Assembly (NCBI GenBank): GCA_031405455.1
Contig: JANNIY010000151.1
Location: 440 to 64,439, forward strand
Direction of reading: 5' to 3'
Source of the DNA: Deltaproteobacteria bacterium
Lineage (GTDB): Bacteria; Myxococcota_A; UBA9160; SMWR01
Length of the DNA: 64,000 nucleotides
A program made the translations under genes and the position numbers. Positions 1 through 24,657 of this stretch are shown here, in pieces. The notes beneath the pieces are model-generated. The model was not told where the DNA came from, searched no databases, and was given only the letters and a program-made list of their open reading frames with translations. Position 1 is the stretch's first letter. Every line of letters starts with the position of its first letter.

Positions 1-1
1 T

Positions 2-100
2 GCAGCCGAACTGCGCTCCCTCGGTCTCCCGCGCCGCGCGCTGATGACCACCTGGATGGAGCACATGCGCGGCCGCTTCGAGGCGGCGGAGAAACTCTAG
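2..100 (+). CDS. 3' end of an unidentified CDS entering from upstream of the window (...AAELRSLGLPRRALMTTWMEHMRGRFEAAEKL*)
   Basis: The frame is open from the window edge to TAG at 98-100 and has strong G/C third-position bias. It is too short to identify and is not in the ORF track. Confidence 0.3.
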   Translation, partial: AAELRSLGLPRRALMTTWMEHMRGRFEAAEKL

Positions 101-106
101 GCGGGT

Positions 107-1000
107 TCAGACCAGCCCGACGACGTAGGCGATCCAGGCCGGATCGTCGGGGGCGTGTTCACGGCACGTGAAGACGTCGTTGCCGCGGCCGGTGTCCGAA
201 TCCGTGCCTTCCCAGTAGACCTCGGAGCGCGAGAAGCCGGCCTCGGCGAGCAGCTCGCGGATCTCGGGAATCGACCACAGCCGCCAGTCGTAGCTGAAGG
301 CGCGCCGGATCCGGCTGCCGTCCTTGAACTCGAAGTCGATGTGGTTGACCACGCGGTTCGTGATCGGGTCGAAGACGTGCTGGTCCCAGACGTAACGAAA
401 ATTTCGCACCCGTCGCCCCTCGCGCATGGTGCGCTGGGCGTCCGCGCCTCCGTAGGCATCGAGCAGCAGCATGCCCTCGGGAAGCAGCGTGGCCCGCGCT
501 CGCTGGAAGTACAGCAGCAGCTCGGCGCGCCGCTGGAAGAGGTAGTAGGAGAAGTTGAGGGCCGCCGTGACGTCGACTTTCGCGTGGCCGACGTCGCGCA
601 CGTCGCCCTCGATCAGCTTGATGCGCGCCGCCTGATCCGGCCGCAGGCGCGTCAGGTTGTGCTCGCGGCCCCAGCTGAGCGGTGCGGGGTCGAGATCGAT
701 CGCATACGCCCGGTTCTCGGCGTGGCGTTCCACCCAGCGGCAGGCGATTGCCGCCGTGCCGCAGAAATCTTCTCGAAACGAACGCGGCAGACGGCCATAG
801 TGCCGGCGAAAGACGCGATCGATCAGCCGGAAGTCGGCTTCCGGCTCCTGGACGCTTTCCTGGTAGAGCTCGTAGACGTTCGCTCGTGCCGCGAGGGTTT
901 GGCGGCGGGAGCGCGGCGGTTGGGAACGGGTGCGCGTCGCGGCGCGCGGATTCTCGCTCGCACGCACTGATTTTCCGACCGGCTCCTGCTTGCGCTTCAT
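107..1000 (-). CDS. Class I SAM-dependent methyltransferase
   Basis: From ORF 107..1171(-). It has a Rossmann-type SAM motif region (REDFCGTAAIACRW...AYAIDLD...IEGDVRDV...LLLDAYGG). I moved the start to ATG 1000 (MKRKQEP) because the Arg-rich upstream extension runs into the neighbouring gene. It lies 68 nt downstream of the DUF2063 gene on the same strand. Confidence 0.85.
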   Translation of the reverse strand: MKRKQEPVGKSVRASENPRAATRTRSQPPRSRRQTLAARANVYELYQESVQEPEADFRLIDRVFRRHYGRLPRSFREDFCGTAAIACRWVERHAENRAYAIDLDPAPLSWGREHNLTRLRPDQAARIKLIEGDVRDVGHAKVDVTAALNFSYYLFQRRAELLLYFQRARATLLPEGMLLLDAYGGADAQRTMREGRRVRNFRYVWDQHVFDPITNRVVNHIDFEFKDGSRIRRAFSYDWRLWSIPEIRELLAEAGFSRSEVYWEGTDSDTGRGNDVFTCREHAPDDPAWIAYVVGLV

Positions 1001-1067
1001 GTCCGGATTCCCGCAACCCATGAGGGGGCGGGCGAGGCTAGCAGATGGCCGCCGTGGCGGGATCGCG

Positions 1068-1895
1068 TCACGCGAGCGCGGCGAGCCAGCCTGCCTGTTG
1101 CCAACGCGCCAGCAGCGCGGCGGCGCGCGCAGGCGCCTGCGCCTCGCCGAGCCGCGCGGCCAGCGCCTCACAGATCTCGCCGAAGCGCGAGCCCGCGCGC
1201 GCGAGCCCGAGCGCCTCCGCCTCGATCGGCTCGAGCGCGCGATGAAAGACGCGCTCGTTCGTTCGCCAGACGCAGATGCATGTCGACTCCGGCGCGAGCT
1301 CGCCGGGGATCTCGGCAGCCTCGCGATCGTACGCGATGCGCACGCGATCGACGGGGAAGGCCAGCGTGAGGAGCGCGAGCGCGGATTGAAAGACGAAGCG
1401 AAGCTCCGCCCAGCGCTCCGGTGCGACTTCGGCGAGCGTCGCCTGCGACAACAGCGGGGCGTCGGCGGCGTCGAAGGCTTCGATCAACGCCCATTCGAGG
1501 CGCGCGAGATCAGCGGCGAACGCAACCCGCCGCCAGGCCCCTGGCGCGACGGCGAGGAAATCGGGCAGCCGCGCGCCCGCGTCGCGCAGCGACGGCTGAT
1601 TCGGCGGGTGCGCGCGCAGATAGGCGCTCACGAGTTCGTCGAAGGCCGGCTCGCCGAGCACGCGCGCGAGTGTGCCGAAATCGTCCGCGAGCACCTCGCG
1701 CAGGCGCTGGAACCAGGCGTGCGCGTAGATCTCGAGCCGCGCAGCCGCCGGCCGCTGCGGATCGCCGCGCAGCAGCGAGGCGACCTCGTTCTCCCGAACC
1801 CCCGCGCCCGTGGCGCTAGGTGCGGTGATCAGCTCGCGCAACCGCTGCTGCAGCTCGCGCAGCGGCGGATCCGGACTCGTTCGCTTCGCGTCCAT
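1068..1895 (-). CDS. DUF2063-family protein, HvfC/BufC-like partner of the MNIO enzyme (RiPP maturation)
   Basis: From ORF 1068..1934(-). The N-terminus LRELQQRLRELI...RLEIYAHAWFQRLREVLADDFGTL is typical of DUF2063 putative DNA-binding-domain proteins that follow DUF692 genes. The start is placed at ATG 1895, which has GAGGGAG upstream. Confidence 0.85.
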   Translation of the reverse strand: MDAKRTSPDPPLRELQQRLRELITAPSATGAGVRENEVASLLRGDPQRPAAARLEIYAHAWFQRLREVLADDFGTLARVLGEPAFDELVSAYLRAHPPNQPSLRDAGARLPDFLAVAPGAWRRVAFAADLARLEWALIEAFDAADAPLLSQATLAEVAPERWAELRFVFQSALALLTLAFPVDRVRIAYDREAAEIPGELAPESTCICVWRTNERVFHRALEPIEAEALGLARAGSRFGEICEALAARLGEAQAPARAAALLARWQQAGWLAALA

Positions 1896-2757
1896 ACTCT
1901 CCCTCGAGCGCTGCGGCCGCGACCGTGCGCGCACGTGCGACCTCCTGCACCAGCACGTCGAATTCGGGGATCAGATCGTCCCACTCGATGAGCGTCGAGA
2001 CGGGGCCCAGCCGGCGGAGCGCGCGCGCATAGAGATCCCAGACTTCGTCGCGCACGGGGTGATCGTGCGTATCGATCAACAGCGCGCCGTTCACGCTGTG
2101 TCCCGCCAGGTGGATCTGGAACACGCGCTCGGGCGGCACGCCATCCACATACGCATTGGCGTCGAAGCCGTGGTTGTGCGCGCTCACGAAGATGTTGTTC
2201 ACGTCGAGCAGCAGGCCGCAATCGGCCGACTCGCAGATCGCGCTGAGAAATTCCCATTCGGGCATCGCGTCGGCGTGGAACGACGCGTAGGAGGAGACGT
2301 TCTCGATCGCGATGCGGCGTCCGAGCGCGTCCTGCACGCGCGCGACGCGCGCGGCGACGTGGCGGACCGCTTCCTCCGTATAGGGAAGCGGGAGCAGATC
2401 GTGGAGGTTCTCACCCTGCACACCCGTCCAGCACAGATGGTCCGAGATCCAGAGGGGCTCGAAGCGCGCCGCGAGTGCCGCGAGTTCGCGCAGATAGGCG
2501 GCGTCGAGGGGATCGGTCGAGCCGAGATTGAGCGAGACGCCGTGCAGCACGAGCGGCGCGTGCGCTCGCACTTCGGCGAGCACGCGCAGCGGTCGGCCGC
2601 CAGCGATCATGTAGTTCTCGCTGATCGCCTCGAACCAATCGCTTTCGAGTTCGCCGCGCTTTGCGCGCGCGAGCACGTCGGGGTAGTGCCTGGGCCGCAG
2701 TCCCACGCCAAAGCCGAGGAACGGGGCGTCATGCGGGCGCGGCGGGAACGGCGGCAT
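1816..2757 (-). CDS. DUF692-family multinuclear non-heme iron oxidase (MNIO; MbnB/TglH/BufB/HvfB-like RiPP maturase)
   Basis: From ORF 1816..2967(-). Conserved DUF692 blocks are present: GFGVGLRPRHY, FEAISENY, LHGVSLNLGS, WISDHLCW, IAIENVSSY, LLLDVNNIFVSAHNHG, IHLAGH and TLIEWD. The start is at ATG 2757 (MPPFPP), 62 nt after the precursor stop. Confidence 0.9.
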   Translation of the reverse strand: MPPFPPRPHDAPFLGFGVGLRPRHYPDVLARAKRGELESDWFEAISENYMIAGGRPLRVLAEVRAHAPLVLHGVSLNLGSTDPLDAAYLRELAALAARFEPLWISDHLCWTGVQGENLHDLLPLPYTEEAVRHVAARVARVQDALGRRIAIENVSSYASFHADAMPEWEFLSAICESADCGLLLDVNNIFVSAHNHGFDANAYVDGVPPERVFQIHLAGHSVNGALLIDTHDHPVRDEVWDLYARALRRLGPVSTLIEWDDLIPEFDVLVQEVARARTVAAAALEGEYGREANESGSAAARAAAAVARADHRT

Positions 2758-2819
2758 GCGGCTCCGATGCGCGGCGGAGCGGACGGCCGCGCCGCCCGCT
2801 CCGCCCGGAAAAACGCGAT

Positions 2820-3077
2820 CTACTTCTTCGCCGCGGCCTTCGCCGCCGTACACTCGTCGGGCGTCATCATCTCGTAGCCCTGGCCCTGGCAGGCATTCTG
2901 GCCGGAGCAGGCGTTGTGCGCGGTCTTGCAGGCGCTCTGGCCCTTGCACTGGTTCACGCCCTCGCACTTCACCGTCGCTTCGCTGCCGGCTTCGGATTCC
3001 GCGAGGGCGTGGCCGGCCGCACCGGCGACGAACAGCGCCGCGGCCGCGGAAGCCAGGACATAGGATCGGGTCTTCAC
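2820..3077 (-). CDS. Exported six-cysteine RiPP precursor peptide (bufferin BufA2 / HvfA-like), 85 aa
   Basis: Buried in ORF 2820..3194(-). GTG at 3077 is preceded by GGAGG with a 7-nt spacer. It has a Sec-type signal peptide (VKTRSYVLASAAAALFVAGAAGHALA). The mature part is ESEAGSEATVKCEGVNQCKGQSACKTAHNACSGQNACQGQGYEMMTPDECTAAKAAAKK, with six Cys. It sits directly upstream of the DUF692 and DUF2063 genes. Confidence 0.8.
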   Translation of the reverse strand: MKTRSYVLASAAAALFVAGAAGHALAESEAGSEATVKCEGVNQCKGQSACKTAHNACSGQNACQGQGYEMMTPDECTAAKAAAKK

Positions 3078-3122
3078 GTAGACACCTCCTCGGGTGATGC
3101 CGGCGGGGGATGGCCCGCGCGG

Positions 3123-3139
3123 CTGCGCATGCTGCGCAG
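3123..3139. promoter_or_regulatory. Perfect 7-3-7 palindrome CTGCGCA-TGC-TGCGCAG in the leader/promoter of the precursor gene
   Basis: Read directly from the sequence. It lies 46-62 nt upstream of the GTG start at 3077. It could be an operator or a 5'-UTR stem-loop. Confidence 0.3.
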
Positions 3140-3212
3140 GGGTTAGATGCAGCAATGCGCGCGGGGATTCAAGCCGCGCGTTCGGGGCGTTCACGCCGGT
3201 TCGGCCGGGAAC

Positions 3213-3239
3213 GCGAAAAGAGCCGCGAATCCGGCGGCT
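3213..3239 (-). terminator. Possible intrinsic terminator of metH
   Basis: On the minus strand the sequence reads AGCCGC-cggattc-GCGGCT followed by CTTTTCGCGTT, about 60 nt after the metH stop. The stem is only 6 bp and the U-tract is imperfect. Confidence 0.35.
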
Positions 3240-3301
3240 TCGCGCGCACAGCCCGACCTACGCAGCGTGTGCCGAGGCGGGCGGGGGGCGGGCTGGCGCG
3301 C

Positions 3302-6988
<3,687 letters not shown>

Positions 6989-22540: not shown

Positions 22541-23209
22541 ATGCCCCCCCGCGCGCCGTGGCTCTTGTTCGTCGTCGTCGGCGCCCTGTTCGTGGCGGGT
22601 CACTACGTACGCAACGGACTGGGCGTCGAGCTCGCCGCGGATTCGTTGCGCGATTGGGTGCGGGGCCTCGGCGTCGCCGCCCCGATCGCCTATGTCGGGC
22701 TCGTGACGTTTCGGCAGTTCCTGCTCGTGCCGTCGTCGCTGCTGCTCGCCGCCGGTGGGCTCGCCTTCGGTGCGGCGCTCGGAACGCTGCTCGGTGGCGT
22801 CGGTATCGTGCTCTCGGCGCTGCTGGGCTTCACGCTCGCGCGCACGCTCGGGCGGGAGTGGCTGCGCCTGCGCATGGGCGAGCGGCTCGCGAGCCTCGAG
22901 CGGCATAGCCAACGTGTGGGGCCGCTCGTCGTCGGGCTCGCGACGGCCCATCCCCTCGGCCCGATGAGCCCGGTTCATTGGGGCGCCGGGCTCGCCTCGA
23001 TGCGTTGGTTGATCTTCTTCGCCGTGGTGGGGATCGCCGGCCCGGCCCGCGCGTTCCTGCTCTCGACCCTCGGCGCATCACTCGTCGAGCCGCGGTCGCC
23101 GGGCTTCTGGGTGGCCGCCGCGCTGGTGGGCGCGGCCCTGGTGCTACCGCTCGCCCACCCGGCGGTGAGGCGGCGGCTGCTCGGCCGCGCGCCCCCCAGC
23201 CAGGGTTAG
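22541..23209 (+). CDS. TVP38/TMEM64 (DedA-related) family membrane protein
   Basis: A 222-aa ORF with multiple TM segments and the block [23 protein letters not shown], typical of the SNARE-associated/DedA-like family. Confidence 0.78.
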
Positions 23210-24657
23210 TAGCGATAGTGATCGGGCTTGTAGGGGCCGTCCGCGGGCACGCCGATGTACTCGGCCTGCTCCGGCGTGAGCCGCGTCAATTTTACGCCGA
23301 GCTGCCCGAGGTGCAGCCTCGCGACTTCCTCGTCGAGATGCTTGGGTAGGACGTAGACCTTCTTCCCATACTTCCCGGCGTTCTGATGCAACTCGAGCTG
23401 CGCCATCACCTGATTGGTGAACGAGGCCGACATCACGAAGCTCGGGTGTCCCGTCGCACAGCCGAGGTTCAGCAGCCGGCCTTCGGCGAGCACCAGCACA
23501 CCGTGGCCGTCCGGGAAGATCCACTCGTCGTATTGCGGCTTGATGTTTTCGCGCCGGATGCCGGCCACCTTGCGCAGGCCGGCCATGTCGATCTCGTTGT
23601 CGAAGTGGCCGATGTTTCCGACGATCGCCTTGTCCTTCATGCGCGCCATGTGCTCGGCCGTGATGATCTGGAAGTTCCCCGTTGCGGTCACGAAGATGTC
23701 GGCCGTTGCGACCACGGCGTCGAGGGTGTTCACCTCGTAGCCTTCCATCGCCGCTTGCAGCGCGCAGATCGGGTCGATCTCCGCGACGATCACGCGGCAG
23801 CCCTGTCCGCGCAGCGCCTGCGCGCAGCCCTTGCCGACTTCGCCGAAGCCGCACACGACGGCGACCTTGCCGCCGAGCATCACGTCGCTCGCCCGCATCA
23901 GGCCGTCGGGCAGGGAGTGCCGGCAACCGTAGATGTTGTCGAATTTGCTCTTGGTGACGGAATCGTTGACGTTGATCGCGGGGAACAGCAGGCTGCCGTT
24001 CTTTTCCATCTGGTAGAGGCGATGCACGCCGGTCGTCGTCTCCTCGGAGACACCGCGGACCTTCGGCGCGATCTTCGTCCAGCGGCCGGGGCTGCGCTTC
24101 TGCTCCTGGCGCAACAGCTGCAACACGACGCCCCATTCCTCGGGATCCGTCTCGGCGTTGAAGTCGGGGATCTTCCCGGCCTTCTCGAACTCGACGCCTT
24201 TGTGGATCAGCATGGTGGCGTCGCCGCCGTCGTCGACGATCAGATCGGGGCCGGAGCCATCGGGCCACTGGAGGGCGACGTCCGTGCACCACCAGTACTC
24301 CTCGAGCGTCTCGCCCTTCCAGGCGAACACGGGAACACCCTTGGGCTTCTCGGGCGTTCCGGTCGGTCCGACGACGGCGGCCGCCGCGGCCGGATCCTGT
24401 GTCGAGAAGATGTTGCAGCTGACCCAGCGCACGTCGGCGCCGAGATCGGTGAGCGTTTCGATCAGCACCGCGGTCTGCACCGTCATGTGCAGGCTGCCCA
24501 TGACCTTGGCACCAGCCAGCGGGCGCTGTCCGCGGTAGCGCGCGCGCAGCGACATCAAGCCGGGCATCTCGTGCTCGGCGAGCCGGATTTCCTTGCGGCC
24601 GAGGGCGGCGAGCTGGATGTCAGCGACTTTGTAGGCGGGGCTGCGATCGGCAGTCAT
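23206..24657 (-). CDS. ahcY: Adenosylhomocysteinase
   Basis: A 483-aa ORF with textbook AhcY blocks: [40 protein letters not shown] and GHFDNEID. Confidence 0.97.

Follow-up and report, generated by a model that had tools for sequence, protein, structure and literature searches.

An uncultured member of the Myxococcota carries, near one end of a 64,000-nucleotide stretch of its DNA (contig JANNIY010000151.1, positions 440 to 64,439; hereafter the window), a block of closely spaced genes that raises the question of which of them belong to a metallophore cluster. An initial annotation, made from the sequence by itself, described a bufferin/Hvf-type cluster for a peptide made on the ribosome and altered after translation (RiPP): an exported six-Cys peptide, a multinuclear non-haem iron oxidase (MNIO), a DUF2063 partner and, as a non-canonical fourth gene, a methyltransferase dependent on S-adenosylmethionine (SAM). 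The first part of that description holds. The locus is of the bufferin type, with an MNIO maturase and a DUF2063 partner; its peptide and enzyme pass the respective equivalog models, and the linkage of peptide and partner to the maturase gene recurs in 69 and 76 of 80 related loci, respectively. The second part does not hold. Very probably, the locus is a canonical three-gene Buf2 operon, bufA2-bufB-bufC, that a single lineage of uncultured Myxococcota acquired between metH and an older methyltransferase gene, and the methyltransferase is a bystander.

Gene calls and family membership

All four open reading frames (ORFs) are present as had been claimed, co-directional on the minus strand over positions 107-3077 (Table 1). 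The gap of 62 nt between the peptide gene and the MNIO gene is exact (2758-2819), and the overlap of the DUF2063 gene with the MNIO gene amounts to 80 nt with ATG 1895 as the start of the former. The methyltransferase gene does come after bufC, at a distance of 67 nt and not the 68 nt first given. An independent gene call on a public Logan contig that encodes an identical BufB yields proteins of 85, 313, 257 and 297 aa, and a gene of convergent orientation comes next. The gene beyond the methyltransferase is convergent both on that contig and in syntenic loci, and therefore the block holds no further downstream gene.

Table 1. Coordinates of genes and candidate regulatory elements, numbered from the first nucleotide of the window
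Feature	Position	Strand	Description
bufA2	2820..3077	-	85-aa bufferin-2 precursor
bufB	1816..2757	-	MNIO/DUF692 bufferin maturase, multinuclear non-haem iron oxidase, 313 aa
bufC	1068..1895	-	DUF2063 partner with C-terminal domain resembling a RiPP recognition element (RRE), 275 aa
class I SAM-dependent methyltransferase	107..1000	-	297 aa; neighbour of the bufferin cluster, judged a non-member
metH	3302..6988	-	cobalamin-dependent methionine synthase; 1228-aa ORF, upstream flank, outside the cluster
two-part promoter-like motif CTTGAATCC-N14-GCATCTAAC	3142..3173	-	in the 224-nt metH/bufA2 spacer
palindrome CTGCGCA-GCA-TGCGCAG	3123..3139	-	read from the sequence, just downstream of the promoter-like motif
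12-mer CTGCTAGCCTCG	1033..1044	-	33 nt before the methyltransferase ATG

The first gene, bufA2, starts with GTG, and a GAGGAGG ribosome-binding site is found 7 nt before it. The precursor that it encodes reads MKTRSYVLASAAAALFVAGAAGHALA followed by ESEAGSEATVKCEGVNQCKGQSACKTAHNACSGQNACQGQGYEMMTPDECTAAKAAAKK, with the predicted cleavage site at the junction of the two. By inspection, a Sec-type signal peptide occupies residues 1-26 (3000-3077); it opens with MKTR, continues with an 18-residue stretch rich in Ala, Leu and Val, lacks a lipobox Cys and ends in ALA before E. Residues 27-85 (2823-2999) make up a core of 59 aa that contains all six Cys, at precursor positions 38, 44, 50, 57, 63 and 76. 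Reading of the ORF therefore agrees with the earlier description of an 85-aa peptide with a Sec-type signal peptide and six Cys. An alignment of 49 sequences shows no variation at C38, C44, C50 and C76 and a conservation of at least 90% at C57 and C63; the latter degree of conservation is also observed for A9, A11-13 and F16 in the signal region.

The precursor matches the NCBIfam equivalog NF050166 ("BufA2 family periplasmic bufferin-type metallophore") at 84 bits, the cut-off being 60 (E 6.4e-24, positions 3-76 of 79), and its Cys align with the six of its relatives, so that its proposed assignment to the six-Cys BufA2 class stands. Homologues in protein collections (NCBI, UniRef) already carry the BufA2 name. 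A search of Pfam, including DUF2282 (PF10048), returned no family for this peptide at E <= 0.01, and no second copy of it was found in the window. An AlphaFold model of low confidence (predicted local distance difference test, pLDDT, of 60) shows a two-strand sheet, whose strand 1 carries C38, and a C-terminal helix, which carries C76. Two strands and a helix, with the first Cys on strand 1 and the last on the helix, is the topology reported for bufferins (PMC11626156).

The bufB gene runs from ATG 2757 to its end at 1816, and all of the DUF692 blocks that had been listed for its product (GVGLRPRHY, WISDHLCW, IENVSSY, HLAGH and LIEWD) are found in it. Against NF050167 (MNIO_BufB, "MNIO family bufferin maturase") BufB scores 372.7 bits, with a cut-off of 310, over the full length of the model (E 8.4e-112, positions 1-262 of 262), and it matches PF05114 with an E value of 1.4e-108. 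The second-best model is HvfB, at 262.4 bits and under its cut-off of 360; BufB is likewise under the cut-off for the ApyH, MbnB and ChrH models. Its best relative in the PDB is 3BWW (E 1.6e-46). When compared with 81 homologues, BufB retains all 60 of the alignment columns that are at least 97% conserved, including His, Asp, Glu and Asn positions. Profile searches, which the initial annotation had recommended, thus place the enzyme in the RiPP-associated BufB group and the peptide in BufA2.

For bufC, the likeliest start is ATG 1895, which is accompanied by a GGGAG ribosome-binding site and gives a protein of 275 aa that ends at a stop at 1068; GTG 1934 and TTG 1841 are alternative starts. 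The PF09836 domain begins just 14 residues past the Met encoded by ATG 1895, and the similarity of BufC to its relatives reaches into the overlap with bufB. BufC scores 70.6 bits against PF09836 (DUF2063; cut-off 27.2, E 1.4e-19) and 29.1 bits against PF22106 (NGO1945_C; cut-off 27). The matches of the three proteins to BufA2, MNIO_BufB, PF05114 and PF09836 greatly exceed what chance would give. The HvfC equivalog was also tried and gave 66.9 bits, with a cut-off of 142. Since that model is Hvf-specific and both Pfam domains pass, we do not hold this low score against BufC.

Conserved linkage of the three buf genes

The window was compared with 80 bufB loci obtained by a scan of genome collections, whose BufB proteins are 52-74% identical to that of the window and whose neighbouring genes were identified by tblastn (individual loci are designated by L numbers). 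The loci come mostly from Myxococcota, "delta proteobacterium" and Gammaproteobacteria metagenome-assembled genomes (MAGs), and the nearest genome matches for BufB are Myxococcaceae and Myxococcota MAGs. BufC adjoins BufB, directly downstream, in 76 of the 80 loci. A BufA2-like ORF lies beside bufB in 69, and conservation of the peptide beside MNIO homologues, which had been set beforehand as a test, is thereby observed. Among the 65 loci that could be scored for gene order, 63 have the order A-B-C. The translated peptides of the relatives nearly all follow the pattern C-x5-CKG-x3-C-x6-C-x-G-x-N-x-C-x-G...C. Within the close clade, identity to the window proteins is 60-91% for BufA2, 77-84% for BufB and 61-75% for BufC, and the intergenic DNA has diverged. 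The family membership of bufA2, bufB and bufC and their conserved linkage are thus direct observations.

Variants were seen among the related loci. The gene order is bufB-bufC-bufA2 in L006 and L007, and double-domain precursors with 12-14 Cys are encoded in L067, L069, L079 and L083.

The methyltransferase gene downstream of bufC

The methyltransferase gene starts with ATG 1000, and the MKRK N-terminus that this start gives is conserved in relatives. We observed no homologue of it within 7 kb of bufB in any of the 80 related loci; in 65 of these, the sequence downstream of bufC extends for 2 kb or more. The genes that follow bufC vary from locus to locus: gcvP is found in 19 loci, DoxX in a few, and otherwise unrelated genes. 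The 19 gcvP (glycine dehydrogenase) genes, all in gammaproteobacterial loci among L032-L061, lie on the same strand as bufC at a median distance of about 150 nt, and gcvP is thus another housekeeping gene that is open to misreading as a fourth cluster gene.

The converse comparison was made from the methyltransferase itself. A search for its family produced 6091 matches, and 85 methyltransferase-encoding loci were examined. All nine loci whose methyltransferase shares 79% identity or more with that of the window have buf genes upstream of it. Among loci below 79% identity with at least 300 nt of upstream sequence available, the count is 0 of 57. The neighbourhood analysis suggested in the initial annotation thus finds that recurrence of the methyltransferase near MNIO homologues is confined to one clade, in which the order metH, buf genes, methyltransferase and acetoacetate decarboxylase (ADC) is syntenic.

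In seven of the loci that lack buf genes, metH is directly upstream of the methyltransferase gene at a distance of 127-182 nt (L105, L112, L116, L123, L124, L126 and L129), and in 11 more it is found further upstream; in at least one buf-less locus an opposite-strand gene (DUF3179) intervenes between the two. The MetH proteins that adjoin the methyltransferase in buf-less loci are 68-76% identical to that of the window, and five MetH Pfam domains are present on the syntenic gene in L001. Downstream, the ADC and mla genes are common to buf-linked and buf-less methyltransferase loci. The identities of the methyltransferase and of MetH to their window counterparts are 88 and 87% in L001, 69 and 76% in L003, and 60 and 73% in L123, respectively. 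The one tracks the other and therefore fits vertical descent. At the edge of the window, positions 1-100 of the plus strand correspond to the 3' end of the convergent gene, as judged by synteny with L001, L002 and L166; the family of this gene in L001 and L002 is acetoacetate decarboxylase (PF06314), and by synteny with the same three loci an mla operon is expected past the window edge.

The methyltransferase gene also has a conserved element in front of it. This 12-mer, written CTGCTAGCYTSG, is shaped like an extended -10 element (TGnTAnnnT) and occurs once in the window, with 0.01 occurrences expected. Of the fetched loci, 20 have it upstream of the methyltransferase gene, 14 of them lacking buf genes, across proteins of 55-88% identity, and it is likely to be the methyltransferase's own promoter. 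Because the methyltransferase is absent from all 80 bufB loci, because buf genes are absent from all 57 loci with a more distant methyltransferase, and because metH adjacency and the 12-mer are common to loci with and without buf genes, bufABC appears to have been inserted between metH and an older methyltransferase gene. Most likely, the series metH, methyltransferase, ADC and mla was inherited vertically as a backbone, and bufABC entered it in one Myxococcota lineage. We judge the methyltransferase to be a syntenic bystander with an upstream element of its own and probably no part in the bufferin cluster.

The predicted structure of the methyltransferase is confident (pLDDT 88.7). A Foldseek search finds it equally near to an uncharacterised Pyrococcus methyltransferase, C-methyltransferases, CypM, CcbJ, TylM1 and glycine N-methyltransferase, with identities of 14-19%. 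We read the match to CypM as a resemblance that does not argue for a peptide substrate; the Foldseek matches are distributed evenly among sugar-N, glycine-N, C- and peptide-N-methyltransferases and point to no particular substrate. The family is characterised by a Lys/Arg-rich N-terminal tail and a fold like that of glycine N-methyltransferase, TylM1 and CypM. As a neighbour of metH, the methyltransferase might take part in the methyl cycle. Elsewhere, the window also encodes an S-adenosylhomocysteine (AdoHcy) hydrolase (23206-24657).

The same evidence bears on the four-gene cluster that had been proposed. In such a cluster, a methyltransferase recruited within the clade would tailor the bufferin, for example by S-methylation of thiooxazole thiols or N-methylation of the new N-terminus, which would yield a methylated variant of the bufferin. 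Its orientation and close spacing behind bufC with no terminator detected between them, the adjacency kept in all nine close-clade loci, the presence of the cypemycin N-methyltransferase CypM among its fold relatives and a weak match to the daptide RiPP methyltransferase model (19 bits, with a cut-off of 175) count in favour of such a cluster. The linkage is, however, confined to a narrow clade and is explained by the metH and ADC/mla synteny of buf-less relatives; none of the 80 other bufB loci has the gene, and the 12-mer is conserved with or without buf genes. Sugar, glycine and small-molecule methyltransferases match the fold equally well. The enzyme is cytoplasmic, and since the thiooxazole thiols are the copper ligands, their S-methylation would be expected to abolish bufferin function. 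In addition, a survey published in 2025 describes additional conserved genes in bufferin clusters as extremely rare, with methyltransferases nowhere mentioned in its text (PMC12452194). We therefore consider a four-gene cluster very unlikely.

Elements upstream of bufA2 and between the genes

An alignment of five bufA2 upstream regions, which are otherwise divergent, has CTTGAATCC-N14-GCATC(T/A)AA as its main invariant block. The window's copy (Table 1) can alternatively be written as TTGAATC-N15-GCATCTAA. A search of the window for TTGAATC-N13-18-GCATCWAA gives a single match, with 0 expected. The motif is present in all five clade loci for which upstream DNA is available and absent from all other loci examined, and it is likely to be the promoter of bufA2BC. 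It departs from the sigma-70 consensus and bears only a loose likeness to promoters of the extracytoplasmic function (ECF) type; ECF-type TGAAAC...CGTA motifs are seen in some relatives, and the motif of the window is unlike them. The palindrome that follows it could be an operator or a hairpin in the 5' untranslated region. A GC-rich dyad of other sequence is found at the same place in L001, L087, L091 and L002.

A consensus scan of positions 1-3500 detected no sigma-70 promoter, and a terminator scan of the same interval found its sole terminator-like site inside metH. Co-transcription of bufC and the methyltransferase gene would be the first step in a route to a methylated product, in which insertion of bufABC gave rise to a read-through transcript and the methyltransferase was co-opted for methylation of the precursor, under a clade-specific promoter/operator that is not of the SigF type. 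We regard this sequence of events as highly improbable; if true, it would represent the first methylated bufferin. A scan of the whole window with Rfam returned zero RNA families, and a riboswitch or leader upstream of bufA2 or metH is therefore taken to be absent.

The window itself shows no repeats around the buf block. Elsewhere, GC-rich tandem repeats of 40-73 nt with the core CTCCGCTCGCCTGCGGCTCGCTGCGCGCTCCGCTTGC were seen: in L002 they flank the block (794-944 and 2982-3054), and in L091 (4202-4331) and L093 (approximately 2067-2125) related copies were seen only between bufC and the methyltransferase gene. These repeats could be intergenic elements resembling repetitive extragenic palindromes, or the trace of an insertion.

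DoxX, sigma factors and neighbouring genes

The initial annotation noted that the locus has neither a DoxX gene nor an ECF sigma/anti-sigma pair nearby, and took both as departures from the described examples. The absences stand within the reach of our searches. A tblastn search of the window with five DoxX proteins from related loci, one of which was checked against PF07681, found none at E < 0.1. A corresponding search for ECF sigma factors also found none at E < 0.1, with an approximate RpoE query that limits its sensitivity. A Pfam scan of 20 neighbouring ORFs, from the first 31 kb and from 38.6-39.1 kb, detected no copper-resistance, ECF-sigma or DoxX genes and housekeeping families only. 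Among these neighbours are a HAD hydrolase, GST, DJ-1, SIMPL, an enoyl-CoA hydratase, an S41 protease, an amidase and the AdoHcy hydrolase.

It is the departure that does not stand. A DoxX homologue lies within 7 kb of bufB in only 19 of the 80 related loci, and the founding buf2 operon of Caulobacter vibrioides (CCNA_02999-03001) is likewise without a bufD1-like gene (PMC11626156). For buf1, DoxX has been reported to be dispensable for modification and for copper protection (PMC11626156). The 2025 survey finds sigma/NrsF genes in Buf1 and not in Buf2 clusters, and six Cys in 90% of Buf2 precursors (PMC12452194). Since buf2 lacks bufD and Buf2 clusters lack sigma/NrsF genes, a locus with only the A, B and C genes and no linked regulator represents the normal Buf2 state.

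Two observations on the related loci belong here. In L019 and L024, DoxX sits between bufA2 and bufB. An ECF-sigma-like gene was found within 7 kb in approximately 24 of the 80 Buf2-type loci with an approximate E. coli RpoE query, the loci including L009, L012, L017, L021-L026, L028, L029, L060 and L062; the stricter cluster definition of the survey may explain the difference between its result and this count.

Proposed maturation and function of the window bufferin

For the chemistry, export, metal specificity and regulation of the window bufferin we infer a pathway by analogy with characterised relatives. Transcription of bufA2BC would proceed from its own promoter in the metH/bufA2 spacer, as suggested by the clade-conserved motif. 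BufC, with its DUF2063 and RRE-like domains, would bind the 85-aa precursor in the cytoplasm and present it to BufB, and BufB, acting as an O2-dependent multi-iron oxidase, would carry out a four-electron oxidation of each of C44, C50, C57 and C63. By homology to Buf2 of C. vibrioides, these four residues are predicted to become 5-thiooxazoles, with a shift of -4 Da each. Sec would then export the peptide, signal peptidase would cleave it after Ala26, and a disulfide between C38 and C76 would bring the total shift to -18 Da. The 59-aa periplasmic product would be expected to chelate or buffer excess copper. In C. vibrioides, mature Buf2 is 18 Da lighter, corresponding to four shifts of -4 Da and one disulfide, and buf2 is both copper-induced and copper-protective (PMC11626156). 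The presence of 5-thiooxazoles in bufferins has been confirmed (10.64898/2025.12.15.693703; PMC13097082), and the dissociation constant of Buf1 for Cu2+ is approximately 6e-15 M (PMC11626156).

Several points weigh against reading the locus as a three-gene Buf2 operon with this pathway. In every close-clade locus the methyltransferase gene is found 33-170 nt beyond bufC with the same orientation, and the consensus scan recognised no terminator between the two genes, so that read-through co-transcription from bufC is possible; the fold relatives of the methyltransferase include an N-methyltransferase from a RiPP pathway, CypM. The bufA2 promoter is assigned from conservation alone, and peptide modification, export, copper binding and induction are carried over from homologues. 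Finally, the Cys24/Cys50 numbering quoted for Caulobacter Buf2 could not be reconciled with the window peptide.

The copper specificity of the product could also be other than proposed. A functional bufferin-2 might serve a different thiophilic metal, or redox or sulfur stress, with regulation perhaps unlike that of the SigF-dependent Caulobacter operons. MerC-bufferin fusions and possible roles with other metals have been described (PMC12452194), the first 31 kb of the window yielded no detectable genes for copper resistance, ECF sigma factors or DoxX, and the motif upstream of bufA2 is restricted to the clade and unlike the ECF-type TGAAAC...CGTA motifs of some relatives. On the other hand, the characterised members of the MNIO/DUF2063 group all bind copper and are stress-induced (PMC11626156; PMC13097082), and the window peptide lies fully within the Buf2 consensus. 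A target other than copper is thus unlikely.

It is also conceivable that the locus is a silent or decaying remnant, with genes that are not expressed or a peptide that is not modified. The consensus scan found no sigma-70-type promoter, and the operon forms an island among housekeeping genes without a linked regulator, as a remnant might. Yet none of its three ORFs is disrupted, a good ribosome-binding site is present, every near-invariant BufB residue is retained, the clade proteins are conserved at the identities given above while the intergenic DNA diverges, and the promoter-like motif is conserved. We consider decay extremely unlikely.

With a canonical Buf2 operon as the preferred reading, the value of the locus is mainly one of annotation, as a Myxococcota example for a family of thousands with curated NCBIfam models. 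It also carries a caution for genome mining, in that a co-directional and closely spaced "tailoring" gene beside a RiPP core may be a syntenic bystander; checking the homologues of the neighbour, beyond those of the core enzyme, quickly resolves cluster membership. The site between metH and the methyltransferase gene points to the movement of bufABC as an independent set of three genes that brings along a promoter-like element of its own.

Comparison with known systems

A distant system is methanobactin (MbnA/MbnB/MbnC). Both systems use an enzyme of the MNIO superfamily on Cys of a ribosomal peptide to produce a copper ligand, which for the window is predicted. The window enzyme scores 69 bits against the MbnB model, with a cut-off of 325, and the corresponding PDB match has an E value of approximately 1e-10; the partner is MbnC in the one and a DUF2063 protein in the other. 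Methanobactin, with its oxazolone/thioamide chemistry, is a secreted small chalkophore made with a leader peptide, whereas the window product is a predicted periplasmic mini-protein made with a Sec signal.

The hvfABC(X)/oxazolin group comprises the EGKCG-repeat peptides fontiphorin, bulbicupramide and gonophorin, for which the name 'captophorins' has been proposed. Its MNIO subfamily is related to that of BufB, with HvfB as the second-best model and 3BWW coming from that group, and it shares a DUF2063/HvfC-type partner and copper-binding thiooxazole products, the latter predicted for the window. In contrast to that group, the window proteins remain under the HvfB and HvfC cut-offs by the scores given above, and the precursor has no EGKCG.

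With buf1ABCD, the window locus shares the MNIO and DUF2063 maturation pair, an exported Cys-rich precursor and, as predicted here, 5-thiooxazole chemistry. It differs from that system, which has a DUF2282 precursor, the DoxX protein BufD and neighbouring sigF/nrsF genes, in that its peptide has no DUF2282 match and six conserved Cys, as compared with four in bufferin 1, and in that neither a DoxX gene nor a sigma/anti-sigma pair accompanies it.

The closest system is buf2 of Caulobacter vibrioides, bufA2-bufB2-bufC2 (CCNA_03001-02999; Leprevost et al., PNAS 2024; PMC11626156). The same three genes are found in the same order, DoxX is absent from both, and both precursors combine a Sec signal with a six-Cys core, of 59 aa in the window and 61 aa in Caulobacter. 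The host is an uncultured member of the Myxococcota and not an alphaproteobacterium, the window operon sits between metH and the methyltransferase gene, no regulator of the SigF/NrsF type was detected with it, its upstream motif is clade-specific, and its chemistry is predicted. Thus, in every property that can be judged from sequence the locus appears to be of the Buf2 type, and it departs in those same properties from the Buf1/DUF2282, Hvf/oxazolin and DoxX-containing four-gene types. Its lineage-specific features seem to be only two, the site of insertion and the upstream motif.

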